A DNA stretch of 64,000 bases, from positions 32,755,967-32,819,966 of the forward strand of contig CM120640.1 of the NCBI GenBank assembly GCA_051362555.1. Direction: 5' to 3'. The translations under genes were made by a program, and so were the position numbers. Under the pieces are notes generated by a model, which saw only the letters and a list, made by a program, of their open reading frames with translations, had not been told where the DNA came from and made no database searches. Below are positions 36,498 through 64,000 of the stretch, in pieces. Source of the stretch: Lingula anatina. Lineage: Eukaryota > Animalia > Brachiopoda. Position 1 is the stretch's first letter; the number at the start of each line of letters is the position of its first letter.

Positions 36498-39400
36498 TCA
36501 TCCATCAAAGATAGTTTTCTGCACGTGGCTCGAATCATCGCTTATATTACCAAGGCCGTTTTGTGTTCTCTTTTTCTTTTTAACTTCACCCAGCCTATAA
36601 TACCTAGCAGCCACAAAGAAAATCAGAAGTCCAACAAGCTGGAGCCCTGCTAAAAAGTAATAGTAGTAGTCCAGGTGGCATTCACATGTCTTATTCTTAC
36701 CACATGTAAACTTACAGTTTATATTTCCATTATCCTGGTCAAAAAACCACACACCCTGGAACCAAACCATGGAAAAAGTACCCAGCAAAGCCCCAATTCC
36801 ACTAAAAAGCCAAAACAACCCCATAATGATGCTCTGCATAGAAGCTGGAGATTGAGAGTAGGCAAACTCCAGACCTGAAATGAACAAAATATAAAACAAC
36901 GTTACCTTCGTTCTTTTTGGTCAAGTTATATATTATAATTCTGTTGACTTATTGGGATATCTTGAAACTTTGATTTGAAAAGACATCAATGTGGGTAAAA
37001 TACAAGAAAACATCTAGGGAAAAAGGTTATGAGTACCATTTCACATTCAATTTCTATAAATTTTTACACATGCTGTCCTAATTCTGAATCAGATAGAAGG
37101 ATAAACCTATCCAAGTAACATATACCTGCGACACTGGCAAAAGCCTCACTGATACCAATTAGGCAGTACTGTGGAATCTGATACAGGATACTTAGGTGTG
37201 AAGCATTATATGAAGTGTTTCCTATAAACAAGAATGTAAATTTATCAAAGGTAAAATAAACATTTGGAAAGTCATTTCAAATGAAAAATACCCTTACATC
37301 TATTACAATCTTTAAAAGCATTAACATGATATCAGTAATTATAATCTCTATTACACACTACAAAACAATTTCCTTTTACATGGATAACAACTGTTCTCTT
37401 TGGCCAATAAATTTCCTCTTAAAGGGATAACAACTGTTCGTTTTGGCAAAAAAATTATTTTTCTGGGTAAACATTAATTTTTCCATACTAACCAATGGTC
37501 AATGAATCCATTCTGACATTCAAAGATAGTCCATGGTTAAAAAAAAATTTGGCTTTTTGTAATAATCTCTTTAGAGATTATAACAAAGGGTAGCCATCTA
37601 TGGAGGTCACATGGACTGATGGCAAACACAGATTTCAGGATAAGTGCAGTTACCACTGATTTGGTGGTAAAATAGAATTTATTATACTTCTATGAAGTGT
37701 TAACAATGTATTTATTGTGAAATATGAAACTCAAACATAGAGTTTTTATCCCTTTAAATATAACTTTTAAACTACTTACCAATTTCCTGTATGATGATCC
37801 CGTTGTTATGTACATCATGTAATCGTATTGTCTCAATACCCCCCGCCATTGCAACAGCAAGGACAGAAAACAACAGTCCAACTGTAATACGGGAGATCAT
37901 GCTAAACTGTCTTCCAGAGCGGTCAAGTTTAGGATAGACACATCTGTCCAACAGAGGGATTAGAAACAACAAAAAGAGGACATCAAAAAGAGAAAGACTG
38001 GCAACTGGTACCTGCAAGGAAAACATAAAAATAAATAAAACTTCAAATAATTTAATAACTGAATATTAATAATGATTTTAAGGTTTGCATTGAGGCATTT
38101 TTCACTTATGTTTTATAATGCTTAGTTCTTTTTTTATTCCTGAAAAACATTTAAAATAATCTCAAAAATCATTATAAAATATTTTGTCACCTTTCTTACT
38201 AGCTGCATTAGAACATCTCATCATTCCCAAAAATGAAAAAAGGAAATAATGAAAATGTAATTGAAACAAATAAAATGTAAAACAAAAACTTATTTTAATT
38301 AAAACACACAATAATATGCCTAAATAAACTTACGTCATATTCCTTTTTGGGTTCAAATATACTCAGACTCATGTGAAGACCTTGCACAAGAAATGTGGAT
38401 TCCATCTAAAAAAAGAAATTGCCAAAAATAATACTTCATCCAAACTCAAATAAGGAGAAAATTATCTTTACTTCTTTATGCAAAAGTTCTTAAAATTTTT
38501 TCAAACAACACACAACAAAATTCCTATATACCTGAAAATACACCATCCAATATGGAATGAGTGCTGAGAAGACCATCATAATTTTCCCCAAGGCCTTGAC
38601 ATCATCTACCATGGACTCATGGTAGCTGCCTCCAAAGCGCACTTTGGCATAGTCCAGACAGTCTGTGGGTTTACTACTGTGCGACAAGTCTGCAGAGTCT
38701 ACGTGTTCTTCACTGCAATTAACAATGTTTAGTTAAAATTCTACCTCAATGCACTGATATCAGGGTGAAGATCAACAGTCAACAGCCTAATGCTGATAGA
38801 CCCATTTGCTAATTATGGATCATAATTGTTGACTGGGGAAATAATACAGATCTGCACCCTGAAAGAACAGATCTTTAATTCAAAGAGTAAGGTTGTCATA
38901 TTTTACATTCATCAAAATATGCAATTTACCAATCTTACACCAGAACATTTACTTACAAAGCTGGACTGTTTTCTCACTGATACAATCAACTGATTTATGA
39001 GAATCAAAGAATATTAATAAAAAAGCAACGATTATTTTCTATTCATCCTAGATAAATTACCTATGGAAAGGTAACTGCCCATCAATTACTTTTCTATTTC
39101 TTCGGTTCCTAAATGCTTCACCTATAATCTTGAAAATATTGGTAAGAACACTCCCGGTAGCCGGCCTCCTAATGTAGGCAGGAGTACCTGTAAAATATTG
39201 AATAATTATCAACATATATGTTATTAAACAAAAAGTAGTTTACAGTACACCATAGTAATGTTTCAAATAACATTTTAGTTTCCAGTCCTAGAAATCTACA
39301 CCTGATTGCAATCCCCCCACCCCCATTTGATACCTTTAAAATCCAACAAACCACTTTTTGTACCGATTGCTAATTGTGGGATGCTGCAATTGAAAGCAAT

Positions 39401-42193: not shown

Positions 42194-45100
42194 ATGGAAT
42201 CAAAGAAGAGTGTGTTATTCTTGTCCCCACTTAAGCCATACAGTGGAAACCAAACTACCATTGACAGAATTAGGTAAATGATGTACATGTGTGTATTAAA
42301 GTATATGATGATATTTTAATATTCGCAAAATACAGGTAGTTTCTAGAAATTGAAGTTAATACAAATGTTTCACAATGATGTCTGTAGAATTTAAAAACAT
42401 ATACTAGTATACTAGTATATCATTATTGAATTTTTAATTAAGAAAATTATTGAATTATTCAGACTCTGTATTTTTATTGTTTAATTCAGGCAGTACCTTG
42501 AGCCATTGTACAACTGCTACACAGAAGACCCTGTTAATCTCTGTCCACAGAAAACATTTTCTGAGTTCTTAAAAGTAAAACAAATATCTGCAATACTGGC
42601 AGTGCATGCATATCACTCAGGAATAATCTTGTTGGGTGAGGCAGTCTGATATTGCTTTACAGTATGTTTTTATAGCTAAATTACTAGTATAGTATGTGCA
42701 TACAAGCAGTTATAGATAATACCTTAAAAAGAGTAGTGTTTTGAATTTTATGTAAAATATTACTGGTATATGTACATGTATGTTTGTTCAAAACTGTCTA
42801 CTCTCATATATATGTTTCTAATATGATCAATATAAAGATTTAAGAAGACAATATTGTTTCTTTTTATTCAGACTGCACAGTGCCATACATTTTGGTGTTT
42901 GGAGGTACAGATATCAATGAATTTTCCAAAGATGAATCAAAATTTCAGATTATGACCCGGGCTGTGCAACATGCAAAGTAAGTATTCTATAACCATTTAT
43001 ATCCTAATATGGGAACTAAACCCATCAGTATGACAACTATGCATAACTGTCTCTGATACTGGGAATTAATTAGCAACTGACCAATGTCACATGTAGTCTC
43101 AACCTGAGACCATTCACTAAGTAAACTTTACTCATCTTTTAAAGGATTTTGCATCTTTCAGGTTTGCTGTTGCTTTTAATGACTCCGTGGTAAATAAAGC
43201 CAAATCATTATGGGTAAGTCTTAAAATGAAGGTAAAATAATAAATGTATAGATATTTGCCAATCTCTGATACAACCTACAGCAAAATTGTGTCCAAGAAT
43301 TTTAAATGATGTGACTTTGTTCAAAATTTAATACTTATTTTGATTACATTAACTAAGATTGACATTCTTTCAAAAGACTTTTTAAATATATTACTTAATA
43401 AATGAATATGTTTTTATATTTCTATATATAAAATTCCATATATATATTACATAAATTATAACAATTTCAGTTTGTGCATATGACAATTACTCGATCTTTT
43501 CAATTGTAAATTTGACATATATTGTATTTTTTAAAGTCATAATTTCTTTAAATAAGAGCATTTCTATTGAGTGGCAGCAACAAAATTAATAAGCAGGCTA
43601 CTCTTTAGTTCCTTTCTATAGTAACAGTAAAAGCACCATAAGTGCTATACAGAAATATAATTTTGTGATTAAAAAATTATGTTTCTGAAATTGAAAAGAT
43701 CATGTCATTACCGTTATTTTAAAACGAATAAAAATATGTATTGATACATATTAACATTTTTTTCTTTTTTTCTGTTATCCCATAGCCTGATGTTTGTCCC
43801 AAAAAGCTTATTATGATACCTCAGGGTGTTTCCACTACCCCTTCCAGTAGTTTCAGTGTTACCCAATTTCTACAGGAGAACTATAACATAAGCTGTGGAG
43901 ACAGCCCTCTAAGGCTATTCACTTTGATTGCTGGGATAAGACCAGTGAAGGATGTCACATTTCTTCTGAAGGCTTTTTCTGGTATTGTTATGGCTTTATA
44001 GGTATTATTAATTTTACAATAGTTAAAATTTTTTTTTTAAATTATGAACATTATGATAGGTGAGTATACTGTCTTGCATATGATAGTCAGTTTAGTTAAG
44101 CAGGATGTTTAATCTAAAAAAAGAATTCAAAAAGAACAATTAAATGTAAATATAAGAAACTAGGTCTAAATCTTGAAATTTTGCAGATAGAAACCCACAT
44201 GCATACTCTATAGATTTGAATCAATGTAAAATGGCAATACCTTCTTGGATTCCAGCTTGGCATTTAGATGATCACCGTGACTGCTTTTTCTTGATCATAG
44301 GACCACTTGTAAGTTCATCAGAAGACAATGTAATGAAAATACACTGAGCAAAAATATATACATCCCACACAATACTTATAAAAATATAATTTAAAAAATT
44401 ATCATCAATATGGGTTAAATATATAGCTCAATATGGGTTTTATATATAAAAACCCCCTGAAGATGCAATGAAACCGGTTGGGGCAAAATAACTGCTGTTC
44501 TTTATTTCTTTTTTATCATATATATATAGCTTAAATAAAATTTGAATTTTTGTGCCCATTGTGCTACGGATTAACATCAGCTCATTTAGTGTGCCCATTA
44601 CATGTTACATAAATAATTCACATGGGGCATTAAGATTTTTGCTCAGTGTATGTCAGTGACTAAGGTAAGAAAGAGAGCAAAATGCTTAAACTAGCCAAAG
44701 AAGCGCTGGTAATTTTTGATGACGATTCTGCTACATATGCCATTGCTAGGGTTGTTTTCTACCCAGAATAATGCTATTGTTTTGGAATTGAACAGATCCA
44801 TATAGACCCGGTATGAAGAGCAGTCTGGTTTGTTGGAGATATTAGGCTATAAAACCAATTTTAACCATTTCAAACTTCCAGCATATATTGACATTGTAGT
44901 CCTTTTCTTTTGTAGACTGACAAATCTTATCAAATGCAAGTGGAGTCCGTAATTGATAGGTGAGTCTACATTTAATGGTAGTTATCTTGGTAGAGAGCAA
45001 TAACCATTTGCTTTAAGTATCAAAATAAATAATTAAGTTATTTTAATGATGCATCTATGAAGTGCTACTATAAAGATGTAATATCTAATCCAAGCTTTCG

Positions 45101-46252
45101 GCCCCTAGTCCTTCTTCAGGGATTTGAAAAAAATCCTATCACATCTTTATAGTAGATCTTCATAGATGCATCGTTATAATAACTTATTTATTTCTTAAAA
45201 ATCTATACAGTGATTTGATATAAATCTTCAAAACAAATAATTAAAACAGGCACATAATTGGTGAAGTGCGCCCATGTCATCCAGAGTTTCAGGGGACACT
45301 GCTAACTCACCTCTTTACTGATAGTACAGTGGTAATTTTCAGTTCTCTCTGAAAATCAGGGTATTCCTTGTCTATCTGTGAACTAAGAGATGTTTGCTTT
45401 CAGCTGTAAAGGTGTGCTTCAAATCCTTGCACTGGAAAAACCAGACTGTCACGCAATAATCAGGGATAGTTTTGCCCTGGTGAATTCATCACTTAGTGAG
45501 GGTATGTCAGCAGCTTTATTGGAGGTAAGGTTGTACTAGGTGTCCAGTATTATCAGCACATGTCTGCACATTTTTAATGAATTGAAAATTTTTAGATTTT
45601 TATTGTAGAGATGATTTCACAAGTAGCATTTCTGATTATAATTGGCCACATAATCATTAGTAATCTGAATGATTGAATTGGGGTGTTACATTATGACTTT
45701 TTAAAATAATTTCTGTTTAGAATAAATTTGAGAGCAGTCTGACTGACATATTAAAGAGCACCTTGTCTAAAGAAGAATGATAACAATATTCATTGTGCAC
45801 ATACTGTAGGCAATGGCCATGGGTGTCCCAGTTGTTGCCAGAAATATACCTGGTAATGCTGCTGTCATTCAGCACAGGAAAACAGGGTTTCTGTTCAACA
45901 CACCTCAGGTAAATATGAAACCCATTTCTTTTTCTTTCTTTTTTTTTTTTTTGTTAAGTGCATTGATTCCAAAAAAATACTATACCATTCAGTAGATAAT
46001 ATCATGAAAAAGTTTGGTAATCCATAATACATGTAGATAAATTGCTTTATAATGTGAGTGAGATTTCTGGCTGTTGTTTAACTATTAGTCATGTGCTCTT
46101 GTTTTCAGGAATTTATAGAGATTGCACAGGAGTTGCTGCAGGACAGGACTCTGTGCACAGCCATTGCAACCAGTGCTAAAACTGAGGCAGAAAGGAAATA
46201 TTCTTGTAAGAAGGAAATGGAAGCTTATAGAAAACTACTTAATTCAGTGTAA
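42194..46252 (+). CDS. GLT1D1: Glycosyltransferase 1 domain-containing protein 1 (GT4-type); 10 coding exons
   Basis: Exons: 42194-42273, 42490-42635, 42872-42977, 43162-43213, 43786-43981, 44256-44308, 44916-44959, 45404-45524, 45810-45908, 46109-46252. Motifs [79 protein letters not shown] match GLT1D1. Mostly missed by the ORF track because the exons are short. Confidence 0.92.
44453..44483 (+). ncRNA. Minimal type-I hammerhead ribozyme motif (Penelope-like element terminus)
   Basis: CCCC-CTGAAGA-tgcaat-GAAA-CCGGTT-GGGG: stem I CCCC/GGGG, core CUGANGA and GAAA, palindromic AACCGGTT in place of stem III, cleavage triplet GUU. Followed by AAAATAA. Confidence 0.6.
45034..45186. repeat. ~50-bp-arm inverted repeat enclosing the hammerhead motif
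   Basis: TAAGTTATTTTAATGATGCATCTATGAAGTGCTACTATAAAGATGTAATA (45034-45083) pairs with 45137-45186 with about 5 mismatches. Confidence 0.85.
45087..45124 (-). ncRNA. Minimal type-I hammerhead ribozyme motif inside an inverted repeat
   Basis: Minus strand reads AATCC-CTGAAGA-aggactaggggcc-GAAA-GCTT-GGATT: 5-bp stem I, imperfect stem II, palindromic AAGCTT, triplet CUU. Confidence 0.65.
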
Positions 46253-46349
46253 AACAAAGCATCTTTAATTTTGATTATATATGATTCAAATATATTCTGA
46301 ATTTTTGGTAAATTAGGTAATAAATGTACAGACACTGTACAATATTTTG

Positions 46350-46790
46350 ATCACTATTTGCCAATGCCATCCTACATATCTGTTGTTCACCCTATACCTG
46401 CTTTACCATATTTTTTGTTCTTTTTATTTTAAATTAAATGATTGGCTTTGTTTGGTAAAATTGCCAGTTCTTTTTAAAATCAGCATTATCAGATTGTTTT
46501 TGTGTAAGTCATTGATTTCTTATATACATTTTGGTGACCTTTGCCCCAATAAGTGCCAGACTATATTTCTGTTCTACCTCAAATTTGCTGAGTGGCTCTG
46601 TATGATTATGAGGCAGATTTACTTTGAAAGTCACTTCTATCAGGTTATTTTTGCCAAAGTTATTGATTCTTTTCTGTTTGTTTATTTTTGCAATATTTCT
46701 CCCATAGTCATACCTTTGTTTTACTTCAAACTTACTGAGTGGCTTTGTTTGATAAAAAAGCAGGTTCCAATCAAAATCAATATGATTGGT
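46350..46790. repeat. Degenerate ~148-bp tandem repeat (~3 copies) just 3' of GLT1D1
   Basis: AAA(T/C)TT.(C)TGA(G/T)TGGCT(T/C)TGT.TG recurs at ~46431, ~46581 and ~46728. It appears as repeated F(Y)FKL.EWLC in the spurious ORF 46347-46793. Confidence 0.6.
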
Positions 46791-48030
46791 TAATAGTTAC
46801 TTAAGGATCTTTGAGTTTAGTGTGCATTCCCTCTCACCATTTTTAGTGTTCTTAGTAGGTCAGTTGTCTCTTTCTGTCAGTATATATACAGTATATCATA
46901 TAAGCAAATGTTTTCATTTAAGTTTGCTCATATTCTACTCATATAAAATATTGTTAAAGGAACTGCTGTGTTCAAAATTTAAAAAATGTGCTGACACAAT
47001 AATGTGCATTCATGGTTGGTCAGAAAACCAAAAGAGATTGGAAAAAGTGAAAAACATTCACTTCTTTTAGGCACTATATTTGTTGTTGAGGTTTAAGATT
47101 TTGATTTCTTTTTATTTTATAATTAAAAAAATGTTTATTATATATCTTGCCTACATAGATGTTTTTGAATTTTTGCTTTGAGTTTATTTGTTAAATGTCT
47201 TTAACTGTGCCATCGTCACTATCTACTTTAGATTTATTTTATATATTTTGTAATAAGATTACCTGCTTTTAAATTCAAAGTTTATGATCATTTCACCTAA
47301 TTTTCCTGTAGTCTGTAATTTTCATTATGTTAAGCTACAATTCCCCTGACTTACAAACCCCAACTTACTGTATGTTAAAGTCACTTTTCTTTAATTTTCT
47401 TGATGCATGGTTTTGTTTTTATTATCTGCTAAATTCCATTGTATTAAGTGCAGGTATTAGTTTTCGGGCAGCATTTTAAAATGGCCAAGTGGAAAGTTTT
47501 TAAACACATTTTAAGAAAAAATTGAGTATGTTAAGGGCTGATTCCCAATTAATGAATGTGATACTTTTCTTATAAACCGCAGTTGTCACAGATCAACTTT
47601 CTTAAAATTATTTTATAGAAATAAAGTGCTGTACTATTTATTAATGACAAGCGTGCATGCATATTACAATCAAGTAGATTGATTGACTTCCATTTAGTCT
47701 TATATTTCACCATTTTAAATAAATTGTTTTTATGAAATGAATATTTTTGTTTTCTTCTTTAAAGGTTTTACTTGTTTTAGATCCAAGTTTAAGCACTTAA
47801 AACCCCTGTTGCAGCCATTCCATAACAAAAATGACATAAAAGGACCAATTTCAAATACTGTCATAGTTTTAGACCTCATGTTTTTGTATACTCAGTTTAC
47901 ACTTGTACTGTATATCTGACAGTACCACAAATCATATTTCAACATTATCGCCCATTATAATTGGAATCCATTCTTAAGCATTATACGTGCAATTTACATG
48001 CACTGTGTGGAGATTGCAAACTTGACCACT

Positions 48031-49355
48031 TTTTATGTACAGACAGATGTGTCTGTACATATAGCTGTCACCTGCATCTGTCATAGCCGTCGCTGTCAAC
48101 GTTGTGGTGCACTTTCACCGATAGCACAGTAAGTGGAAAATCATTTTATCTTTTGGCTTGAAACTTATCGAGCTGATGAATATTCATAATACGCAGGTCA
48201 AGTTAAAAAATCAGCATGATCAGGCCATTTTCTTAGAAGTTATGCTGTTTTTTAAGCTTATATGCAATATTGATAACACTTCTAACAATTCTAAGGCATG
48301 TTAACAGTCCCATTATTAAACTAATCAGATACTTCAAAATGTTCTTTTGACATTTTCTGCATCTTAACAACATTGTTAGTTGATAATATAAAAATGATGG
48401 TAAACCTGTTATCGTGTATTATGTAATAAAGTGTTAAAAATGAAAATAAACTCATAATAATAATGATAATAATCTATTTTTCTTTGGCGCATTCCATTAA
48501 AAATCTCAACGCGCCTTACAACATTCACTTAAAAGAGCTAAATATCACAATACTAGTATAAGAACACATTACAATTTTAAAGGACTAAGAACTAATTTAA
48601 AGAACCAATTATTTCATATTCTAAAATGATAAGAAACTAAAGTGACAACATTTAAAATTAATCATAAAATTACAGTACACCTTATTAAAAACTAGAAATT
48701 AACTATATGATAGTTACTGATAGGCTATTCTAAAAATATGAGTCTTCAAAAGCTTTTTAAAAGTGTCTATGTCACCTGCTGCTCGTATTTCAGAGGGTAA
48801 GGCGTTCCAAACTTTGGGTGCATATCATATCATAAATGCCCTTTCACCGTAAAATTTACCAGCTTTTTTCTCTAAGACACTGTGTTCTAAAAGTAAATGA
48901 CTAAAAGTTGAAGACCTGGTAACTCTTCCATGCTGATGTTGCTTCACAAGTTCTGAGATATAAAGTGGTTTATTCTCAGTGACTGCTTTATTGCATATCG
49001 TTGCAGTTGGTCAGATTCACTCATTCACTTTGTTCAGAAGAACAAATTGGACAAATAAAATTGTTCTGATGATATTTTTCCTATGTCAACAATTTTCTTA
49101 GTTGATTATGTGAAAATGAAAGTAAATTTATTATTTTGTTTTATGTAAAAAAGGTGTTGAAAATGGAAATAAACTCATTTCAGTATAGTTATCTATTGTT
49201 TACTTTGTAGCATTTGCAAGGTTTGACTCTTAACTTCCATGGCCTTGAAGACTTTTGCTAGTCACATTTTCTGAATATCCATGATACTTTTATTTTATTA
49301 TTAAAAATTGATGGTCATAATGCTGTTTAGCATTATGTAATATTGCATCAAAATT
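48031..49355. mobile_element. AT-rich dispersed repeat with a HINE-like hairpin end, interrupted by a LINE
   Basis: Starts TTTTA-TGTACAGACA-gatg-TGTCTGTACA-TATAG (perfect 10-bp stem, 48036-48059; similar motif at ~33671-33700). The body is collinear with 53640-54240 and partly with 63190-63400. Confidence 0.6.
48457..48993 (-). mobile_element. 5'-truncated CR1/L2-type LINE: ORF2 C-terminus, 3' UTR and (ATT)n tail
   Basis: Minus strand translates ...PLYISELVKQ...FYGERAFMI*YAPKVWNALPSEIRAAGDIDTFKKLLKTHIF..., the typical CR1/L2 ORF2 end, with one in-frame stop. ATT-repeat tail at 48457-48473 and a possible CATA target duplication. Confidence 0.8.
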
Positions 49356-51277
49356 GAAGAAACCCCAGGGGTGGACCCAGGATTATTTAAAAGTGGGGGG
49401 GGGGGGATGCGAAGACGACCCTTCCCCCGACACAAAAACGAAACATTTTGTAAAGCATACAAAGATAATTTTGCTACAATGTGCAAGGCCCAGGGATAAA
49501 AAAAGCATCATTCTGTTTCAATCCAATACAGTGTGTGTGTGTGTGTGGGGGGGGGGGTACAACTATGTTTGCTGATTACTAGCAATGAATACAAACTAGA
49601 CAATATGACACCAGAAAGCTTTTTTTTAATTAAACATTACAAAAATCAAATGCAGAATTAACAGAAACCCCAATTGATTGTTTATTTTCAAATGCTTAAA
49701 TTGCAGATTGGTGCAGATTGTCTAATCAATGTGCTTCATTCTATTCAACTTCATTCTGGATTAATTTTTTTCAACATCCCAGGAACAAATAATTCTATAA
49801 TGAATAAGGAAAACTTCTTTAAGGAAAACTGCCCACCTCTGTATTAAATTTTATTACAAAAATATACAGTATAAGATCAATACTTTCAATATATTGCTCT
49901 TTACTTAACATGAAATGTAGAACACATAAGGAATAAAGCAAGCTTGCCTTGAAATCGTTTGGGTCATTGGTATAATTTCAAGTAACTGTCCACTTCCGAT
50001 TTTAAGTTTATTTTTGATTTAGAGAGTAAAAGGTACTCGTGTAAAGTAGTTATTGCTCAACCACACTTGAGAAAATCGGAAAAGCAGTGACATGCGATCC
50101 TCCTGCGAAAAATGACTGTGTGCACCCAGCATTCTTCGGGAGGAAAAGGATTAGAATTAGTAAGGTTAGCAAAAAGGACAGATTATGATTTTCTCAAATG
50201 TAATGCTGAACAATTCCCATGTCAGAGGCAAATATTTTATAAATACTAATCCAAAACAATTGGCTGAAATGTGGACAATAATTACTATAGGCAATACCAA
50301 TGTTTGTCATGAGAAATTAACCCTGCGCATTTCTCATATAGACCCAAGACCTATAGCTACTTGTAGTGCAGATTAACCAATTAAATATATACTAAATTAA
50401 TTATATACATATGATATGAGGACTATCCCACTTAAGTTAGATAAGATGTCAAAGTACATTGAAATGCACAAGTGAAAAAAAATCTAATTCATCTTGATAA
50501 AACCACATCTAACAAACTTTTAAAGTAAACCATAAACAAAATAAAATACCCTGCATTTGCAAGTATTTGTGAAAACCATTTACATACATGTACGTACACG
50601 TGTATTAACAATATTTTTCCAACAAAGAGTTAGATCTATTTCAAACATAGAATTAGACGCATTGGGTTTGTTATAACCTGCATTGCGATTCTCCGTACTC
50701 TTTAGCCCTGGTCCAAAATGTTTCAGTTATTCTCTATGAACTGGGTACATTATTCGATGCATTTCTTATGTTTGGTGTTTTGCATGTTATGAGAAATGCC
50801 TCTAAAACGTAGACAGTAAAGATGACGCCAATCCCACATATTCAGTTCTGAAATAGATATCATAACTAAGTCAAGATTTTTGTGAAGTTCTATATCTTAT
50901 TACATATACTGCAATCATTACAGTCCACATTCAGTTTAAATTTATTTGACATTATGGAAAGATTTAGTGGGTAAACATGAAAACATACCATTAGGTGTAT
51001 GGAAATACCTGAATAATCATTGGAAGGAGAGACTTAAATTCAGTTGCTGCCTTATTCATGACGTTGTTGCAAAGACTTTCGTTAGCCTACAAGTTCAAAT
51101 TAAATCTTTGTCAGAGCATTGAGAGCATAAGAAAAGTTAATATAACATGTATAAACAAATATGGACTTAAGTCAACCTGTAAATGCTAGAGGTTTATCAG
51201 GCCTACTGGTGGCAGGCCCAGTTCAATATATTATTTTCAATAACTAGCAATAACGTACGTAACCATTTTTTTCTCAC

Positions 51278-51970
51278 CCACTTGCCTTGAAACATTCGTT
51301 TTCAATGCTGAAGCAACACGCTGCTGGAAGGCTATCTACTTCTGATCACTTCTGTTACAAAGAATCCTAAACAGGCATGTGCCCTTGTACCTTTTCATCT
51401 TGGAGAGATGCCATTATCCTTTGGACGTCTGGTGTAGCTATACTATAGCCTAAAAATCAAATTGTATGTTAACCAAAAAACTATGAAAGGAAATGGAATT
51501 GAACCTTGCAAAATGAAATATTTAAAGTACTAGTATGTGCAGTATATGCTAAAATTTTACGACTACCACCTGGCACGACAGTTATCCTCTTTTGTGAAAA
51601 TCGGTTGCATTGTGAATAGGGGTAGGGATTTTTTTAAATTGCATTTGTCATCGTACACTGTGGGTATGACACCCTTAATTGTTTATGTAATAATATATAT
51701 TTACTCCAAGTAGAAATGGAAAATATTTGTTTTCTTGCTCCCCTCTTCCCCACTTACAGTTTACTAACCTTGTTTTATCCCAGGAGTGTGAACAAGCAGG
51801 TTAAGGTCTGAAGAGAGGCTGTCCGTCTATCCCAGAAGTGTAGTCAAGACCTAATGGTAGACACTATATATGTCGTAGAAGTGGGCTAGCTGTCTCATGC
51901 ATGTGGCAAAGAACCTGATGTTGTTCCTCCAAGGAGCGCAGTCGAAGTCCGAGAGGAGGCATTCATCATC
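51278..51970 (-). other. Putative unique downstream exons of the micro-exon array transcript (51769-51970; probably 51278-51449)
   Basis: 51769-51970 has the same flanks as the array (TTTTTACAG| and AAG|GTTAGTAAA) and starts GATGATGAATGCCTC, homologous to the class A exon. Frame 0 reads DDECLLSDFDCAPWRNNIRFFATCMRQLAHFYDIYSVYH*. 51278-51449 is bounded by TTTTTAG| and |GTGAGA. Confidence 0.45.
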
Positions 51971-53473
51971 CTGTAAAAAGAAATAAAAATGAGATTAGAT
52001 TACTTGCACTTCTCCAACCCCCACCTTTTCTACCCCCCCCCCCAAAAAAAAAGGTTAACTAACCTTAAAATTGTTGATCCGAAGAGTAGTCCAAGTTTGA
52101 TGGTAGTCACTCATCATCTTCTATGTCCTGTAAAAAGAAATAAAACTAGATGAGATTTTTTCTTTCAATTTACCTTTCCCCTCCGAAAAAATAAAATTTA
52201 CTAACCTTAAATTGTTGATCCGAACAGTAGTCTATGTTCCATGATAGGCACTCGTCATCTTCTATGTCCTGTAAAAAGAAATAAAACTAGATTAGATTTT
52301 TTCTTTCAATTTATCTTTCCCCTCCAAAAAAATAAAATTTACTAACCTTAAATTGATGATCCGAAGAGTAGTCTATGTTTGATGGTAGGCACTCGTCATC
52401 TTCTATGTCCTGTAAAAAAAATGAGAATGAGATTAGATCTTTTTCAATTTACCTTCACCCCCCCCCGTCCCCTCCCCCCCAAAAAAGAGTTTACTAACCT
52501 CATATTGTTGATCCGAAGAGTAGTGTATATTTGATGGTAGGCACTCGTCATCTTCTATGTCCTGTAAAAAGAAATAAAACTAGATTAGATTTTTTCTTTC
52601 AATTTATCTTTCCCCTCCAAAAAAATAAAATTTACTAACCTTAAATTGATGACCCGAAGAGTAGTCTATGTTTGATGGTAGGCACTCATCATCTTCTATG
52701 TCCTGTAAAAAGAAATAAGAATGAGATTAGATCTTTTTCAATTTACCTACAACCCCCCCGTCCCCCCCCCAAAAAAAAGAAAGTTTACTAACCTTAACTT
52801 CTATCAACATGTCAAGTCAAGGTCTGTGTAGAGTTGCTTATCATCTTCTATGTCCTGTAAAAAGAAATAAAACTAGATTAGATTTTTTCTTTCAATTTAT
52901 CTTTCCCCTCCAAAAAAATAAAATTTACTAACCTTAAATTGATGATCCGAAGAGTAGTCTATGTTTGATGGTAGGCACTTGTCATCTTCTATGTCCTGTA
53001 AAAAAAATGAGAATGAGATTAGATCTTTTTCAATTTACCTTCACCCCCCCGTCCCCTCCCCCCAAAAAAAGAAAGTTTACTAACCTTAAATTGTTGATCC
53101 GAAGAGTAGTGTATATTTGATGGTAGGCACTCGTCATCTTCTATGTCCTGTAAAAAGAAATAAAACTAGATTAAATTTTTTTTCAATTTTCCTATCCCCT
53201 CCAAAAAAATAAAATTTACTTACCTTAAATTGTTGATCCGAAGAGTAGTCTATGTTCGATGGTAGGCACTCATCATCTTCTATGTCCTGTAAAAAGAAAT
53301 AAAACTAAATTAGATTTTTTTTCAATTTTCCTATCCCCTCCAAAAAATAAAATTTACTAACCTTAAATTGTTGATCCGAAGAGTAGTCTATGTTCGATGG
53401 TAGGCACTCATCATCTTCTATCTTCTGTAAAAAGTAATAAGAATGAGAATAGACTTTTTTCAATTTACCTACA

Positions 53474-56080
53474 CATGATCTTGCCATTTTTATAAAAGTT
53501 TGCCGTTTTTTTTTTTTTTTTTTTTCACTTTTTTCAGCTTTAACACATTGTAAGGAAAATTGATTGGCCAATTGCATTGAAATTCACAGGAGTGATCAAT
53601 GTTACTGAAATACAGATTAAGTTTTGAAAATAAGCTTGACCAGTTAAGTTTTGGTGAAGTTATGCCTTTTTTTATTTGTATATAAGTGTTTTTTCCTCAA
53701 ATTTAATTCTCAGGCATGTTAACAGTCTCATTTTTGAACTAATTAGATATGTAAAGTTGTTCTTTTGACATTTTCTGCATCTTAACAATATTGTTAGTTG
53801 ATTATTTAAAAATGATGATAAACCTGTTATTGTGTATTGTGTAATAAAGTGTCAAAAATGGGAAAAAACTCATATCTTTACAGTTTGTCAAATTCAATCA
53901 TTCACTATGTTCAGAATCCAGAATGGAGCAAACTGGATATTTAAAATTGTTCCATTGATATTTTTCTTATGTCAACATTTTTTTTAGTTGATAATTTAAA
54001 AATGACAGTAAATTGATTATTTTGTTTTATGTAAAAAAAAAAAGGTAATGAAAATAGTAAGAAAATCATTTCAGTACAGTTATCTCGTTTACATTTTGGC
54101 ATTTTGAAGGCGAGATTCTTAACTTCCATGGCCTTGAAGACCTTTTCATGTCACATTTTCTGAATATCTATGATACTTTTATTATTAAAAATTGATGGTC
54201 ATTATACTGTTAAGCATTATGTAATATTGCATTAAAATGGGGAAAAAACCTATTTTGGACACTGATGACCATCAAGGGAAAACCATGTCACTTATAGTAC
54301 TTACTGAAAAGTGCAGCTTGTGTTGGAAAATCAGTGTGATTGTTTTCCGTTTTGTAGGCAATGCAGTTCTATAGAGTGCTATATGATGGTACTGTATGGA
54401 TGGCATGAGCAATTGTATTGGTTTTTACGTCTTTGAACATCATGTAATATTATTTTATGCACTGTCATCATTTTTCACATATTGGGATTTTCATTATGTG
54501 AATTTGAACTCTCACACATGGTCCTGAAAATGTAATTTTTTTTCACCATGTTACCTGTTGTGGATGATGAAATTTAAAGGGATAACTGTTCGTTATGGCC
54601 AAAAATTGAATTTTCCTGGAGTAAACAACAATTTCCCAATACTTACCAATGGTTAATGAATTAATTTCTACAATCAGAGTTAGTCCCTGAATTTTTTCTA
54701 AAAAGTTTTTTTTTTCTTTTTTTGTAATAATCTCTTAAGAGATTATAACAGAGTATAGCCATCTATGGAGGTCTTGTGACAAGCTCAGATATCAGAATAA
54801 TAGCTATAACTGCCATTTTGTGGTAAAACGGAATATATTATATTTCTATGAGTTGTTTACAATGTCTTATTGTGGAATATAGATCTCATACAAAGAGTTA
54901 TTATCCCTTTAAGTGTTGATTGTGCTGTTATAAACATTATTTATTACTGTATCAAAATTGACAAAATGACCTATTTTCTGCATCTTTTTAAGGTGTGACT
55001 TATGGGCCTGAAGGCCTTTACTAGTCACATTTGTAATTTTTCCTTGGGTATAATTTCAGAGCTATAAAATCAATAAGATTCAAGTGGCCATTAAATGACA
55101 TTACGAAAATGCACTTGTTGATACTGTAAACTCCCATAGGTTAAGTTCTCTGCCAGATAACTGTCCATAAAAAGGAAGCAGTGATAATTATGCAGGTAAA
55201 TATTGTTTAATATTGCAAATAAGTTTTCAAAGAAAAAATGATTTTGTGTAAGATAAGATAAGATAAGAGTTTATTTAGCCAATTATAAAAATCGGAAATC
55301 ATTTTCCTTTTGGAGCAATATACAGAGTAAAAAATAAAATAATACAATAAATAAATAAATTAAGAATTTAGTTTTGAGTTAAAATTAAAATGCGTCACTG
55401 CACTTGGATAAAAGCCAACATTAATGCTATAGATGAATAACAGTGCCTTATCTATCCTCAAACTCAATGGGGTTTTTCATATCATGTTAATACAGCAAGA
55501 TTAAAAGTTTGAATAGCAGCTTTATTGGAATATTTTTGTTTTTTTGTTTTTTTAATTTTTTTCAAACACTGGCATTTTAAAGATGTAACTTTTTACTCCC
55601 ATCCATTTGAACCTCTGCACATTTTCTGTATTTCCACATAAGCAGTTGTATTTGTATTTATGTCTTTAAACATTACTGTCATTACTGCACTGTCATCATT
55701 TTTCAAATATTGTGATTTTAATTATGTGAATTTGAACTCTCGTGGTCCTGAAACTGTAATCTTATTGCAGGGGCTGATTGAGACCATCTTCTGGACCTTC
55801 TGGAAGACTGTCAGATTTTAATGTTTACATTGATGGGTATCTATTTTTTTCTTTTGGAAGACCATCAAAAATGGAGGATGGATCAACAGAGATAATTTGG
55901 AATACTGTCAGAAAATATCTCTCCTGTTCACTCCTGTTATTGACCATGTTATCTGTTGTTCATGATTAAAATTCAGTGTTGATTGACAGCATTATTTATT
56001 ATTGCACCAAAATTGACGCAATGACCTATTTTTTTGCATCTTTATTTTCTGTTTTTTGCTGTACATTTCACAGCTTTGCT
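53474..56080. mobile_element. ~2.6-kb composite block of dispersed repeats inserted into one intron of the array
   Basis: Contains a copy of the 48.2-49.3 kb repeat, the 54578-54908 MITE and an internal duplication (54420-54990 resembles 55655-56045). Confidence 0.65.
54578..54908. mobile_element. 331-bp Kolobok-like MITE, second copy
   Basis: TTAA|AGGGATAA...TTATCCCT|TTAA, collinear with 37423-37753. An empty paralogous site lies at ~55944-55985. Confidence 0.8.
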
Positions 56081-59000
56081 GCCCCCCCCACCCCCCACCC
56101 CAAAAATAAATAAAGTTTATTAACCTTAACTTCTATCGACGTGTGAAGTCAATGTCTGGTTAGAGTTGCTCATCATCTTCTATGTCCTGTAAAAAAAAAT
56201 GAGAATGAGATTAATCTTTTTCAATTCACCTACCCTCCCTCCCCCCCCCCCAAAAAAAAGAAAGTTTACTAACCTTAACTTCTATCGATGCGTGAAGTCA
56301 ATGTCTGTGTAGAAATGCTCATCATCTTCTATGTCCTGTAAAAAGAAATAACACTAGATTTTTTTTTTTCAATTTTCTTATCCCCTCCAAAAAAATTAAA
56401 TTTACTAACCTTAAATAGTTGATCTGAAGAGTAGTCTATGTTTTATGGTAGGCACTCGTCATCTTCTATGTCCTGTAAAAAAAAATGAGAATGAGATTAG
56501 ATCTTTTTCAATTTACCTTCAACCCCCCCCCGTCCCCTCCCCCTCCCAAAAGAAAGTTTACTAACCTTAACTTCTATCAACACGTGAAGTCAATGTCTGT
56601 GTAGAGTTGCTCATCATCTTCTATGTCCTGTAAAAAGAAATAACACTAGATTAGATTTTTTTTTCAATTTTCTTATCCCCTCCAAAAAAATAAAATTTAC
56701 TAACCTTAATTGTTGATCCGAAGAGTAGTCTATGTTTGATGGTAGGCACTCGTCATGTTCTGTCCTGTAAAAAGAAATAACACTAGATTAGATTTTTTTT
56801 TCAATTTTCTTATCCCCTCCAAAAAAATTAAATTTACTAACCTTAAATAGTTGATCCGAAGAGTAGTCTATGTTTTATGGTAGGCACTCGTCATCTTCTA
56901 TGTCCTGTAAAAAAAATGAGAATGAGATTAGATCTTTTTCAATTTACCTTCAACCCCCCCCCGTCCCCTCCCCCCCAAAAAAGAAAGTTTACTAACCTTA
57001 ACTTCTATCGACACGTGAAGTCAATGTCTGTGTAGAGTTGCTCATCATCTTCTATGTCCTGTAAAAAGAAATAACACTAGATTAGATTTTTTTTTCAATT
57101 TTCTTATCCCCTCCAAAAAAATAAAATTTACTAACCTTAATTGTTGATCCGAAGAGTAGTCTATGTTTGATGGTAGGCACTCATCATCTTCTATGTCCTG
57201 TAAAAAGAAATAAGAATGAGATTAGATCTTTTTCAATTTACCTACACCCCCCCCCCGTTCCCCCCCCCTCCCAAAAGAAAGTTTACTAACCTTAACTTCT
57301 ATCGACTCGTGAAGTCAATGTCTGTGTAGAGTTGCTCATCATCCTCTATGTCCTGTAAAAGAAATAAAACTAGATTACATTTTCTTTCAATTTTTCTATC
57401 CCCTCCAAAAAAATAAAATTTACTAACCTTAAATTGTTGATCCGAAGAGTAGTCTATGTTTGATGGTAGGCACTCGTCATGTTCTGTCCTGTAAAAAGAA
57501 ATAAAACTAGATGAGATTTTTTTCTTTCAATTTACCTTTCCCCTCCAAAAAAATTAAAATTTACTAACCTTAAATTGTTGATCCGAAGAGTAGTCTATGT
57601 TTGATGGTAGGCACTCGTCATCTTCTATGTCCTGTAAAAAGAAATAACAATGAGATTAGATCTTTTTCAATTTACCTTCACCCCCCCCCCCCCGTTCCCC
57701 CCCCCTCCCAAAAGAAAGTTTACTAACCTTAACTTCTATCGACACGTGAAGTCAATGTCTGTGTAGAGTTGCTAATCATCCTCTATGTCCTGTAAATGAA
57801 ATAAAACTAGATTACATTTTCTTTCAATTTTTCTATCCCCTCCAAAAAAATAAAATTTACTAACCTTAAATTGTTGATCCGAAGAGTAGTCTATGTTTGA
57901 TGGTAGGCACTCGTCATGTTCTATGTCCTGTAAAAAGAAATAAAACTAGATTAGATTTTTTCTTTCAGTTTACCTTTCCCCTCCAAAAAATTAAATTTTA
58001 TTTACTAACCTTAAATTGATGATCCGAAGAGTAGTCAATGTTCGATGGTAGGCACTTATCATCTTCTGTGTCCTGTAAAAAGAAATGAAACTAGATTAGA
58101 TTTTTTTTTCAATTTTCTTATCCCCTCCAAAAAAATTAAATTTACTAACCTTAAATAGTTGATCCGAAGAGTAGTCTATGTTCAATGGTAGGCACTCATC
58201 ATCTTCTTATGTCCTGTAAAAAAATGAGAATGAGATTAGATCTTTTTCAATTTACCTTCACCCGCCCCCCCCATCCCCCCCCCCCCCCAAAAAATAAAAT
58301 TTACTAACCTTAATATTGATGATCCTAAGAGTAGTCTAAGTTTGATGGTAGTCACTCATCATTTTCTATGTCCTGTAAAAAGAAATAAAACTAGATTAGA
58401 TTTTTTTTCAATTTTCCTATCCCCTCCAAAAAAATTAAATTTACTAACCTTAAATTGTTGATCCGAAGAGTAGTCTATGTTTGATGGTAGGCACTCGTCA
58501 TCTTCTCTGTCCTGTAAAAGGAAATAAAACTAGATTAGATTTTTTCTTTCAATTTATCTTTCCCCTTCAAAAAAATAAAATTTACTAACCTTAAATTGAT
58601 GATCCGAAGAGTAGTCAATGTTCGATGGTAGGCACTCATCATCTTCTATGTCCTGTAAAAAGAAATGAAACTAGATGAGATTTTTTTCTTTCAATTTATC
58701 TTTCCCCTCCAAAAAAATAAAATTTGCTAACCTTAAATTGATGATCCGAAGAGTAGTCTATGTTTGATGGTAGGCACTCGTCATCTTCTATGTCCTGAAA
58801 AAAGAAATAAGAATGAGATTAGATCTTTTTCAATTTACCTACACCCCCCGTCCCCCAACCCCCAAAAAAGTTTACTAACCTTAACTTCTATCGACGTATG
58901 AAGTCAATGTCTGGGTAGAGTTGCTCATCATCTTCTATATCCTGTAAAAAGAAATAAATTTAGATTAGATTTTTTAACTTCTGCTAACCCCCCCCCCCCA

Positions 59001-61464
59001 AAAAAAAAAAAAAAAGAATAATAATAATAATAATAATACGTTTACTAACCTTAACCTGAGTGGAAGCACTCATTATCTTCTATATCCTGAAAAAGGAAGC
59101 AAAATTATATTAATTTTTTTTAGTTTTTTATTGACACAATACATTACAAATGCATGACAGTACAAAAAAGGGAACAATACTAACTCACACTTGAGAGAAA
59201 ACGGACTTCAGCCGAAAAGAAACAACATCAAAATTCGACGAGCGTGACCTAAATCGGGCACATGAAGGTTTTGGTTCTAGCCTTAAAGGGCAATCAAGAT
59301 CGACCTAGATTATGACAGAAATGAAAAGAGAGTGTGACATGGTGGCACTAACCCATCGCCAGTACCTTGGATTTCAGTCCATTTATGATTAATTTTTCTG
59401 CGGTGGTTATTCGATGTACATTTCCCAGAGCGACGAGTCCGCATGGATTGAAGAGTCGAATTCACAGAAGCACACAGCGGGGGGGGGAAAGACGAAACAA
59501 TCGGTGTTTTGTGCTAGTAAAGAAACTATCCTCAAGTGCGATGCATTGGCGTAGGATCTCATGAGATTTGATGGCGGTTCCCCGGAGAATAACGCTCTCA
59601 CTTCGCGTCCTTTGTTCTCCTCTGGAGTGCAACGCAATGTGTCCTCCCTGCTGCTCAGTGTGCTGTAAAGTGATCACACATTCACAATTGCCCGCTCTTA
59701 AACTTCCTATCGTAGATTGTCGGCTGGGGGCGTTGCTGTCGCCACCATCCTGTCAGTTTGGACGCGGGGGTGTCGTATGAGAGTGAGACACAGATTTCAT
59801 TATTGTATTGTATCTACACCTACGTTTGAAATACATTCAGCGTTTTCATACCTTAACCTTTTAGTTTAAAAAGAAAAAAATCGCACATTTACTTCGGAGG
59901 GAAGAATCAATGTTAGGCTTTAATAGTTTTTGGAGGGAAACCACGCATGCCTCTCCCCTAATTATGATTGACAGTGTCCATGCATCTTGTTGACATGATA
60001 TCAACTTGAAGTTTACTAACCTGCCCCAGGCCATCATTGAACGACCTTGTCCGCGTACACTGGAACACTTATCAACAATATATGCTGATCTACAATGCAC
60101 TTTGAAGAAACTTTCATTTCATATCTTGTTTCACAGATGATGACGTCATAATACATTTTTGCTATAAACATTTATGTGGAGTTGTCCAGCTTTTTTGGTT
60201 GCTTTGATTTTGCAAGGAGAAAGGATAACGAAAAGATAATATGCTTTGTGTGATTTTTAAATTAAAATGTTTTAGTTACTTTTTACAATTGCTTAAATAT
60301 TTTAACTATTTCTTGTATTTGCTTGAAAGAAGATGGCATGCAGCGCCCCATAGTTCCCCTTTTCACAGTTCAGAACTGGCATGTGCTTTAATGTGTGTGT
60401 GTGTGGGGGGGGGGGGGGGGGGGGGGGGAGGAGTAGGGAGTAACCTCCCTCAGCACCTGTTATCTTTTGTGTTGTTTAATTACCAAAATAAACAGGTCTC
60501 TAGCCTGAAAGAGGGGGTCAAACACGGGGGTTTCATGGTAAAAGGTCAGCTTTTCCAGGAAATGACCCCCCTCCTTTGAAATGGCTGGGTAAACTACAAT
60601 TTCTCTTTCCTTCTTTTAATTTCTTTACTAATTAGTTGGATATAGAATAAAAAAAAAGTCACGTTTTGATAATCTACTTCTCCTACAATTACCCAAATGG
60701 TCTTTTATTTTAAAAAAGATCAACAAAAAGCATACAACCATATAATGAAGAGGACATTGTACATGTTATCAGAAGACTGAGTCTCTAATAACCAAAATAA
60801 AAAGTATACTTTTAGCTGAAGATGGACTTAACGGGTTCAGGGGTTGGGGTGAGAAGTAAAAAAATAGAAAGCCAAAATGATGAAATGACCTTAACATGAT
60901 ATTACACAGCTTATACTAAGCATATTTTTCTGACTGGCGTGGAGTTTTCATTTTTACCACATGGAATTTAATGTAAGCGATACTCAGACTACCTGTTCAA
61001 TACCCGCTAGAGATATGCAAGGCGGGGACATCGTGGGATATGGTGACCAGGCCATGGATAGACGGCAGAGAGTTACAGGTGGATGAAACATGTGCCGTTG
61101 ATTACTTTTCGATTTCATTGGTGTGATGTGCGTAGAATAGGTGGTTTTGCTACTTAAAGATGAAGCCTATTTAGTGATGTCAATCAAATAATGGGGGATT
61201 GTGAAGATCTGTGAAAAATGGGTAATTGAAGGTCTGATCTTTCCCCTACTTCTACCCCCTACCGGAATAGACAAAAAACTATGAAAACTAATATTTTAGC
61301 CGATACATATTTATATTCTTATTAAAGATAAATTTCCTAAATTGATGGGTTTCAGGGGCGGATACAGGATTATTTGAAGGGGGTCCGGTGTCATGTACCA
61401 GAAAGTCCCCAATGACAGAGGGTCCGCTTTGTACAGATGTGCCTCGCCCTAGATTTTGACCCAC

Positions 61465-61728: not shown

Positions 61729-63189
61729 TCTTCCACACCAGCGCTATTCGTAATAGCTTTGTAGTTTTTTTCACCAAAATGCTATAAATGGCTTTTGTTG
61801 GCAAGGAGATAAGTGAAAACCTATTGACTTGGTAAATAGCCTAGTCCAAACAAGAGACCATCAAGCCTATAATAATTACCAGAAGTTTACCAGATAAAGC
61901 AAGCTAGCCAATATACTGATGAGCATCTGCTAGATGGCCAGTTCGAAATCAATGTATGCAAGGATGCACCTGATTTAATCAGAGCCAAAATAGTTAATTA
62001 AGGCACACATCTAGCCACCAGTACACATTATGGATTCAGACCTCCCATAGCAAAACTAGACCCTCAGTGGCTGGTACTGTCAGTGTAAAGCAGGTTTCCA
62101 AGACAGTTGGAAGTTGTGCACATATGACTTCAGTTCTGTGGTATATGGGGTTTGCCACGAGGCAGGGGTACAATAAAAATTATGTTGTGGCGAAGGCTGT
62201 TTGGATGCCTCACATTTACCAACATCAAGTGGTGAGAGTATTAGCGAGACAGAAAGTGTTTCAGACAGCACATCTGATTAATTATCTATTGTTCCTTTAC
62301 ATTTTTTTAATTCTCATATTTATATATTTTGTATAAAATAACTCTTGCATTGCATTCTATACAAGGTCTTTATCACATACATAATCATATATGAAGTACT
62401 TTTTAGGTGATTTAATTATCATTGTCACACAGATTATTGGCCATAACTGTTCTTACGTGTACTATATTTTCATTTGGTTTTTACTTTTACCTTATCATTA
62501 TTTTGGTACAATTTATACCTTGTTTATTTCATGGTTAATGGAAACATTCCAAATAGCTGTTTCGAGTGCATTTAACGCATGATTTTTTGTGTTACTGTAA
62601 CAGCCTTTTACTTTTAGCATTTTTTACTATTCCATAGAGCATTGTATAAAAAATGTGTATTGGTTAACAATACAATTATTTAGACCAACAAATGCTGGTC
62701 TGTGAGAAAAGTTATATAAAATTAATAAATACGCTGAAACAAGTTTTTCTAGTTACAAGACTTTTATACAGTAAAGTGAAATCAGTGATGGTTTCTGTGA
62801 GAAAATATCGTAATACACCACCCCTCCCTCTCTTCTCTAGGATTAAAAAAAAAACAATTACTTTCCCACTTACTTGTGCCACACCACAATTATTTAACAT
62901 ATAACTCTTTTTCTTTTCACCACAAGACAAGTTTCATTAGAAAAAATTATTTAAGTAAGATGCTGAAATAAGTAGCTCTGATTCATATTAGACTGCATAC
63001 AACAGGTAAATCTGGTTACCCCCACCCCCACATATAACTCATTAAAAATACTAAGTTACGATGCCTGAAACCAAGTAATATTTTTTCACACAACAAATAT
63101 ATGCATAAACTTAATAATAGCAAATTATTTTAAAAAAATTGACGATGGGCACTTTGCCAATGGTTATCTGCACTCATCCTTTAATTTTT

Positions 63190-64000
63190 CACATATCGAC
63201 ATTTTCAAGGTGTCACTTTGAACTTCCATTGGCTTGAAGACCTTTGCTAGTCTGAATATCCGTGATATTTTTATTTTATTATTAAAATTGATGGTCATTA
63301 TGCTGTTAAGCATTATGTAATATTGCAACGAAAATGAAGAAACCTCTATTTTGGACACTGCTTTTATAGTAACCATTAAAGGAAAACCATGCCACTTACT
63401 CTTCTTAAACTTACAGGAGAGACACACAGGACTAAAATGCACCCTGTGTTGGAAAAGCAATCTAATTGGCTTCTTTTTCTGTTGTACATGTTTGTGAAAT
63501 TGTTATCTTTCACATATTGGCGTTTTCAATGTGAGACTTGGAACTCCCATGGGCATGATGCCCAGTGGTAATCACATTTTCTGAATGACCATGTTATTAA
63601 TAAAAGATAAATGGTGGTAATTATAGTTAATCATTATGTAATATCGCATCAAAATTGACAAAAAGCCAACTTCGTGCACTGTCATCACAAACGTTATGAT
63701 AAAAAGAAAACTGTGTTACTTATTATTTTTTTAGCTTAAAAGAATTATTCTTAGGATTGACATACAGCTCATATAAAAAAAAACAGCTCTATTGGATTAT
63801 CATTTTTTATTGAATTAATGCAACTTTTTGTGAAATTCTCATTTTTCTCATTCTGGCATTTTCTAAGTATGAACTTGAATTCTCATGGGCCTGAAGCCTT
63901 ATGCTTTTACTTTCATCGGTATTGCTATTGTGCATAATTTAAATTTGATGTTGACTTTGCAGTTAAGCATAATGTATTATTGCATCAGAATTGACAGTAT
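63190..64000. repeat. Further degenerate copies of the AT-rich dispersed repeat
   Basis: aacttccat.ggc.ttgaagac...attaaaattgatggtcat.atgctgtt.agcattatgtaatattgca matches 49232-49350 and 54121-54300. Confidence 0.75.

Follow-up and report, generated by a model that had tools for sequence, protein, structure and literature searches.

A stretch of 64,000 nucleotides from the brachiopod Lingula anatina (assembly GCA_051362555.1, contig CM120640.1, positions 32,755,967 to 32,819,966; here the window, numbered from its first letter) carries on its minus strand a tandem array in which each unit is one short exon together with an intron. The best explanation, with a probability of about 0.55, is that the array belongs to a multicopy Lingula gene family, likely a small one, whose members have a CpG-island first exon followed by such an exon-plus-intron array. 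The family is transcribed from the minus strand and partly spliced, while the copy in the window has no intact reading frame and is likely a decaying descendant of an acidic repeat-protein gene. What repeat finders report as a 141-bp satellite proves to be the structure of a spliced gene, and masking it hides a transcribed family.

A total of 30 repeat exons were identified from 58941 down to 52064, all of them lying between CAG and GT. These exons, and a related 37-nt exon with GT and AG, had been read from the letters in the original prediction and were confirmed by the sequence, a core search and a profile search. The exons measured 63 nt (16 exons), 62 nt (nine), 64 nt (three), 61 nt (one) and 60 nt (one) within units of 140-155 bp, and the 30 short introns of the array measured 74-108 nt. 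Only the 16 exons of 63 nt have a length divisible by three, together with the 60-nt exon, which is out of frame inside. The acceptor was ACAG in 29 exons and TCAG in one, and the donor was GTTAGT in 27. The other three donors were the predicted variants GTTAGC (58731), GTTAAT (56124) and GTAAGT (53223), and the branch-like motif TCTAAT expected in most units lay within 40 nt of the acceptor AG in 21 of 30. Because an exon-core search blind to splice sites returned 30 units again and the profile search gave the identical 30 strong matches, no unit lacking GT/AG was missed. In the two blocks of the array GTTAGT occurred 27 times on the minus strand versus 0 on the plus strand, compared with 7 versus 8 in bases 1-51700.

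The units had been described as a single array at 52064..59086. They do lie there, but as two blocks (59086-56125 and 53424-52064) parted by a 2.7-kb spacer, and they belong to two exon types, A with 22 copies (mean pairwise identity 93%) and B with eight. In the middle, the A and B exons agree at 18 of 40 positions; their two ends and the splice flanks are the same in both types. Tandem Repeats Finder reported the 141-bp satellite at 52037-53461 and 56082-58831, with higher periods of about 293 and 434. BLAST matched the spacer (53425-56124) to 48287-49364, 37419-37757 and 63188-63681 of the window. The 25 longest of 422 pairs of terminal inverted repeats were all low-complexity or AT-rich and gave no sign of a DNA-transposon frame. 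A pattern scan of metagenomes returned four single 20-letter matches, none of which extends into a unit.

Transcription was analyzed in six raw RNA runs bearing the species label (X1-X5 and X7, out of nine; X1 and X7 were mapped twice), sampled to about 6% for the large runs and to 25% for X7; the libraries were poly(A) or unspecified. Reads were mapped to 42400-52200 and to 58655-60350, the latter holding one exon of each type, so that linear joins and the back-spliced joins of a circular RNA, one of the products originally proposed, look alike among the 542 reads placed there. A GT..AG joint in the plus-strand glycosyltransferase gene of the window, crossed by 21 reads in X1, served as a control and fixed the strand convention of the reads. 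On the last unit of the array (52127-52064) the depth in X1 was 14.6 on the strand opposite to the control gene and 0 on the control's strand; it was 2.4 and 2.4 in the unstranded X7, 0.2 in X4 and 0 in X5. Reads on this unit differed by as few as one or two further letters (row 52107). The CpG island at 59339-59680 was likewise covered mostly by minus-strand reads.

Splicing was seen both out of the first exon and between units. Ten reads joined the first exon to a unit, at 58936>59352 (three in X1, one in X2), 58943>59353 (four in X3) and 58936>59353 (two in X1). A GTGAGT at 59188 had been proposed as the donor bracketing the array; no read supported it, and the reads used the donor at 59352. 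About 21 reads, among rows that may overlap, passed from unit to unit without the intron, by loose ends at 58799 (four in X7), 58899 (eight in X1) and 58936 (five in X1) and by rows 58943>58899 (two each in X1 and X3). The four X7 reads run from a B-type exon end to a unit start, the kind of junction that had been predicted. Joins at 58655-60350 were counted among the rows listed, beyond which lie 21 loose-end and 95 variant rows; a further joint, 58788>58916, has four reads in X3. The original view of a transcription unit grown by exon-plus-intron duplication is supported, with minus-strand, spliced reads of the family and no reading frame in this copy.

In phase 0 the 63-nt type A exon at 57631-57569 translates to DIEDDECLPSNIDYSSDQQFK, and its other two frames contain stops. 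This frame is open in 14 of the 22 A exons; stops or frameshifts occur in the other eight and in all eight B exons, which are 62 nt long with a stop, so that 16 of the 30 exons are broken. Two runs of four open exons occur in block 2. Alleles among the A copies comprised five silent, 18 amino-acid and four stop changes, a ratio to the neutral expectation of about 1.0-1.5 (ratio of amino-acid to silent substitution rates, dN/dS, about 1). From the first-exon ATG (59356-59354, with G at -3 and +4), which is out of frame in this copy, the open reading frame (ORF) spans five codons in all four joins tried, and the longest ATG-started ORF of a product including every exon is 96 codons. Pfam gave no family for an A exon, for the downstream exon or for four other frames taken from the array and the first exon. 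A protein word search with exon alignment found no relative at 8-83 or 84-2000 residues, and HMMER against 1.84 billion representatives returned one match, P0121, an unrelated single-member repeat translation aligned over a short non-acidic stretch. The best score in the ESM Atlas was 0.83. Spliced exons in family reads also measure 62 nt by our own count. Since 16 of 30 exons are broken, the substitution ratio is about 1, the ORF has five codons and no protein relative was found in these searches, this copy has no intact reading frame, and the suggestion of a coding cassette-exon gene is not supported for it.

Coding ancestry of the array stands at about even odds. It is hinted at because the main exon is 63 nt long, in phase 0 and open in 14 copies, and because six of the ten first-exon joins carry, by our own reading of the reads, two extra letters (AG) that place the ATG in frame with the open A frame. 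Silent divergence also exceeded amino-acid divergence between the old exon types in four of four pairs. Beyond the original prediction stand both the type A exon, with its phase-0 frame open in 14 of 22 copies, and the origin of most reads in other copies or divergent alleles.

The mechanism that would account for these data is a unit transcribed by RNA polymerase II (Pol II) from a CpG-island promoter, in which each repeat brings its own acceptor and donor, so that every duplication adds an exon. The ancestor, again at about even odds, would have had its ATG at the end of exon 1, followed by 21-residue repeats rich in aspartate and glutamate and encoded through 63-nt phase-0 exons. The array may have grown by unequal crossing-over of an A/B pair, and a transposon-like insert presumably entered one intron. 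It would now evolve without protein constraint, with promoter and splice sites still working in the family, and the RNA would either stay in the nucleus or be destroyed by nonsense-mediated decay.

Several observations weigh against this explanation or narrow it. Unspliced reads outnumber spliced ones, and the intron base 58798 was covered by 101, 124, 58 and 11 reads in X1, X2, X3 and X7 (the last figure probably including the four spliced X7 reads). In the same order of runs, unspliced coverage was 11, 7, 10 and 2 at 58959, 2, 5, 10 and 4 at 58726, and 7, 7, 15 and 0 at 58875; no splicing rate is derivable from these numbers because spliced reads with short anchors are under-counted. Only two of the 542 reads were at least 99% alike to the window and 15 at least 95%, leaving 527 below 95%. 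The largest read pile (58781-58832) runs into a diverged relative of the downstream exon and not into this copy. The reads also show a 62-nt exon type without counterpart in the window, and first-exon-like reads pass into other sequence at 59414 (eight in X1, 17 in X2). These read classes suggest more than one locus, the diverged reads being paralogues or distant alleles. Part of the divergence is allelic, since the glycosyltransferase control gene, too, shows fixed differences between the window and the sequenced animals and the published heterozygosity of Lingula is 1.6% (reported in PMC4595640). Because only 15 of 542 reads are at least 95% alike and the read classes diverge, minus-strand transcription and splicing hold for the family (related copies or alleles) and are not demonstrated for this copy. 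As to coding ancestry, 24% of shuffled sequences also contain an open phase-0 frame, and among the divergence pairs only A against the terminal type was significant for each of the three A copies used (Fisher P 0.001-0.04). The control frame +1 also showed more silent than amino-acid divergence, more weakly, and a codon-position permutation gave P 0.2-0.3. Finally, GT/AG is intact in 30 of 30 exons while the frames have decayed, which leans to selection on splicing, at P 0.03-0.12 only.

This last point rests on changes counted per column on trees of the A and B units, with the exon bodies as baseline (0.45 per column). GT/AG showed 0 changes in eight columns (P 0.027) and the core splice positions four in 24, versus about 11 expected (P 0.016). 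A version based on the share of invariant columns gave P of about 0.06, and exclusion of CpG sites gave 0.12 for GT/AG and 0.05-0.08 for the core. The branch-like motif had more changes, not fewer (12 in 10 columns), partly from two intron types being aligned together. Splice-site conservation within the array is therefore borderline. The expectation that splice motifs would be more conserved than their neighbours held weakly (P 0.01-0.12 by test and baseline), but did not extend to the branch-like motif. No structure was found by folding in the exons and introns of the array: none of the 30 short introns gave a better fold than shuffled sequence (mean z +0.53, best -0.57). None of five Rfam matches reached the family threshold; one of them, a weak match of the 3' half of an intron to a microRNA family, scored 21 bits where the cut-off is 90 (E 1.6). 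A tRNA search found none.

The architecture is already known from other systems, as far as the published descriptions go. In SmPoMuc, the polymorphic mucin genes of Schistosoma mansoni, a 27-bp exon lies in a 1-kb tandem unit, and the family includes pseudogenes (PMC2576457). The Lingula array resembles it in repeating one short exon with flanking introns in tandem, up to about 20 times in SmPoMuc. SmPoMuc is also described as a multigene family with pseudogenes, concerted evolution and alternative and aberrant splicing (PMC2576457). The Lingula reads show exon types and flanks absent from the window, which may come from paralogues or from distant alleles. In contrast, SmPoMuc is reported with a signal peptide and detected proteins (PMC2576457) and its repeat exons lie in one open translated frame. 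The Lingula copy has 60-64-nt exons in 140-155-bp units, its frame is broken, and no signal peptide or protein was found for it. No sequence relation was found or expected. Micro-exon genes (MEGs) of schistosomes share the many short tandem exons, and the main Lingula exon type is, like theirs, symmetric, a multiple of three. MEG exons are given as coding and 6-36 nt long (PMC4699917), whereas the Lingula exons have 60-64 nt and 14 of 30 are not multiples of three.

Among non-coding transcripts, the C19MC host gene (C19MC-HG) is a Pol II transcript whose repeated exons of about 120 nt are spliced into a ladder (PMC2691840). As there, the Lingula unit is an exon plus an intron and the family-level reads come from a non-coding spliced repeated-exon transcript. 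The introns of C19MC-HG are described as carrying pre-microRNAs in 400-700-nt units (PMC2691840), whereas folding and Rfam found none in the Lingula introns. In the long non-coding RNA (lncRNA) Firre, the exonic local repeat RRD forms seven of 13 human and 11 of 23 mouse exons (PMC4820808). The Lingula array likewise has an exonic local repeat within a spliced non-coding RNA. It differs in being a compact head-to-tail exon-intron satellite, which the RRD exons, as described (PMC4820808), do not form, and in occurring also at other loci or on divergent alleles. Nuclear retention and hnRNPU binding are reported as demonstrated for RRD (PMC4820808). The amphioxus 'mirages', minisatellite-like units of 150-160 bp with splice signals and turnover by unequal crossing-over (PMC3087553), are similar in unit size, splice signals and the probable mode of turnover of the Lingula array. 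According to their description, one exon-intron boundary is duplicated in a coding gene and skipped (PMC3087553), whereas the Lingula units have both splice sites and are joined in RNA, and no coding host gene was found on the minus strand. Thus the array is neither a mirage nor a MEG, and it lacks the defining feature of SmPoMuc (translation) and that of C19MC-HG (intronic microRNA). The family itself appears undescribed: no account of the locus or family was found in the literature, including two Lingula genome papers covered by search terms alone; the supplements of these papers, like database lncRNA annotations, may list it.

A functional repeat-built lncRNA under selection at the RNA level is a possible but doubtful alternative. 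By analogy with Firre and its exonic repeat, the numerous short introns and the purine-rich starts of the exons would recruit spliceosomes, exon-junction complexes and SR proteins and keep the RNA in the nucleus as a scaffold. The intact GT/AG in 30 of 30 exons and the shortage of core splice changes agree with this, as do A and B exons that diverge in the middle and match at their ends and flanks, the CpG-island promoter, expressed relatives that keep the layout with 62-nt exons and the heavy intron retention in poly(A) RNA. However, the P values weaken without CpG sites, the branch-like motif is not more conserved, and crossovers in shared flanks can homogenise unit ends; moreover, the depth is low, falling almost to zero in X4 and X5, and neither exons nor introns show structure. 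It is unlikely, too, that a brachiopod non-coding RNA family was born from a repeat-protein gene with the splicing of dozens of 80-nt introns as its selected function. This would be a 140-bp 'spliceable satellite' that gains an exon with each duplication and acts as a nuclear scaffold for splicing factors. It would stand midway from pseudogene to lncRNA, its in-frame and out-of-frame members still being co-expressed.

We regard as distinctly unlikely an active protein-coding family comparable to SmPoMuc or the MEGs, in which intact members or alleles would translate acidic 21-residue repeats, skip broken exons and vary in repeat number. The phase-0 63-nt exons, the runs of open exons in block 2, the in-frame ATG in six of ten joins and the precedent of repeated exon-plus-intron units with pseudogene members, as described in PMC2576457, speak for it; yet the ATG of this copy is out of frame, dN/dS is about 1, the 62-nt spliced exons of expressed relatives would break the frame, and neither the word search (8-2000 residues) nor HMMER found a matching protein. 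It is very unlikely that a dead exon gave rise to a satellite that is silent at this locus, all reads then stemming from other loci. The scarcity of closely matching reads, the 37-nt exon (59086-59050), which had zero depth in all four runs and adjoins a stretch skipped in mapping, and the largest read pile, which matches a diverged relative of the downstream exon, would fit silence. The retained CpG island, the close reads on unit 52127-52064, the sparse minus-strand reads on the non-repeated flank 49921-51882 and the fixed differences in the control gene, by which some divergence is allelic, argue against it. A host gene for intronic small RNAs such as mirtrons or small nucleolar RNAs, analogous to C19MC-HG, is highly improbable because the introns fold like shuffles and no Rfam match reached threshold, in spite of a suitable intron length (74-108 nt) and the one weak microRNA-family match. 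Rather than a new kind of RNA, the array is likely what a repeat-protein gene has left behind, decaying but still transcribed. Unless a function or the expression of this copy can be shown, it is an oddity of familiar architecture from a phylum that has been little studied. If its coding ancestry is true, it would be a compact case of a repeat-protein gene turning into a non-coding RNA, with in-frame and out-of-frame first-exon variants in the RNA.

Table 1. Features of the array and its flanks in the window (o/e, observed/expected ratio).
Feature	Position	Strand	Description
CpG island, likely promoter and first exon	59200..59800		CpG o/e 0.96 versus 0.34 for the window; reads at 59339-59680
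First exon (5' end approximate)	59353..59680	-	From read depth and joints; ends ATG G, then GTTAGT donor at 59352
37-nt exon	59050..59086	-	Truncated unit with CAG and GTTAGT; profile E 2e-9
Block 1	56125..58941	-	20 repeat exons (13 A, 7 B); introns 74-96 nt; 6/20 exons open in frame
Spacer	53425..56124		2.7-kb enlarged intron with interspersed-repeat pieces; CpG o/e 0.20
Block 2	52064..53424	-	10 repeat exons (9 A, 1 B); 8/10 exons open in frame; minus-strand reads on last unit
Downstream exon	51769..51970	-	202 nt, about three decayed units; CAG acceptor, GTTAGT donor at 51768
Possible 3' region	49630..51768	-	AATAAA at 50946, 50012, 49855 and 49686; sparse minus-strand depth

The flanks of the array had been taken as unique sequence. 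The downstream exon (51970-51769) itself consists of decayed units, with profile matches to the unit at E 3e-12, 0.097 and 0.013 and local alignments that agree. No joint was seen at either of its ends in the mapping to 42400-52200, where most entries for joints and loose ends came from an abundant interspersed repeat. On the non-repeated flank 49921-51882 the depth was 0.1-0.8 in five of six bins in X1 and X4 alike, nearly all on the minus strand. Sparse plus-strand reads occurred over and upstream of the CpG island (59282-60350) in X1, X2 and X3, in a pattern as for a divergent promoter. On the minus strand, a further site resembling a donor, GTTAGTAAAC, is present at 60020, and no joint was seen there.

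Some further reads were observed at the array. In four X7 reads the end of a unit-like exon, at 58742, runs on into sequence belonging to neither an intron nor a unit (agreement 0.68), possibly the last exon of another member. At 58875 the unspliced reads carry a GTTAAT-type donor (6/7, 7/7 and 13/15 in X1-X3), like that of the window at 56124, and a donor weakened in this way may be the reason why an expressed relative retains one intron so heavily. An X7 read match to the exon at 58072 was rejected once positions were checked. A U-rich site after each donor, which we take to be Sm-like, prompted the idea of a spliced-leader RNA; this was ruled out by the units' own acceptors and the low depth at exon ends.

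An interspersed repeat family was found at 47959-49593, with related pieces at 53705-54912 and 63184-63995. Its RNA depth exceeded 1000 in X1 and X7, mostly on one strand in stranded runs, and its reads showed internal back-jumps of 100-140 nt. Another satellite, of 146 bp with 14.7 copies and 94% matches, lies at 4754-6905 in the region of a neurofibromin-like gene, where some plus-strand frames are open over 60-110 codons.

Four recognisable genes lie upstream of the array in the window: a neurofibromin exon (minus strand), TMEM132 (plus), a POT-family transporter (minus) and a group-1 glycosyltransferase (plus; 3' end near 46200). The last two we take to be SLC15A4 and GLT1D1. The last exon of TMEM132 was 99% identical to a Lingula anatina protein, the next best of the 120 matches listed having at most 44%. 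In the database TMEM132 protein P0001, residues 523-687 are repeated at 697-859, and both copies map to 29208-29510 plus 29777-29974. This two-exon duplication, absent from the window, may reflect another haplotype, another assembly or a model error. TMEM132, the transporter and the glycosyltransferase stand in a row within 1-46200. They are presumably neighbours in vertebrates too, and if so they would form an old microsynteny block.

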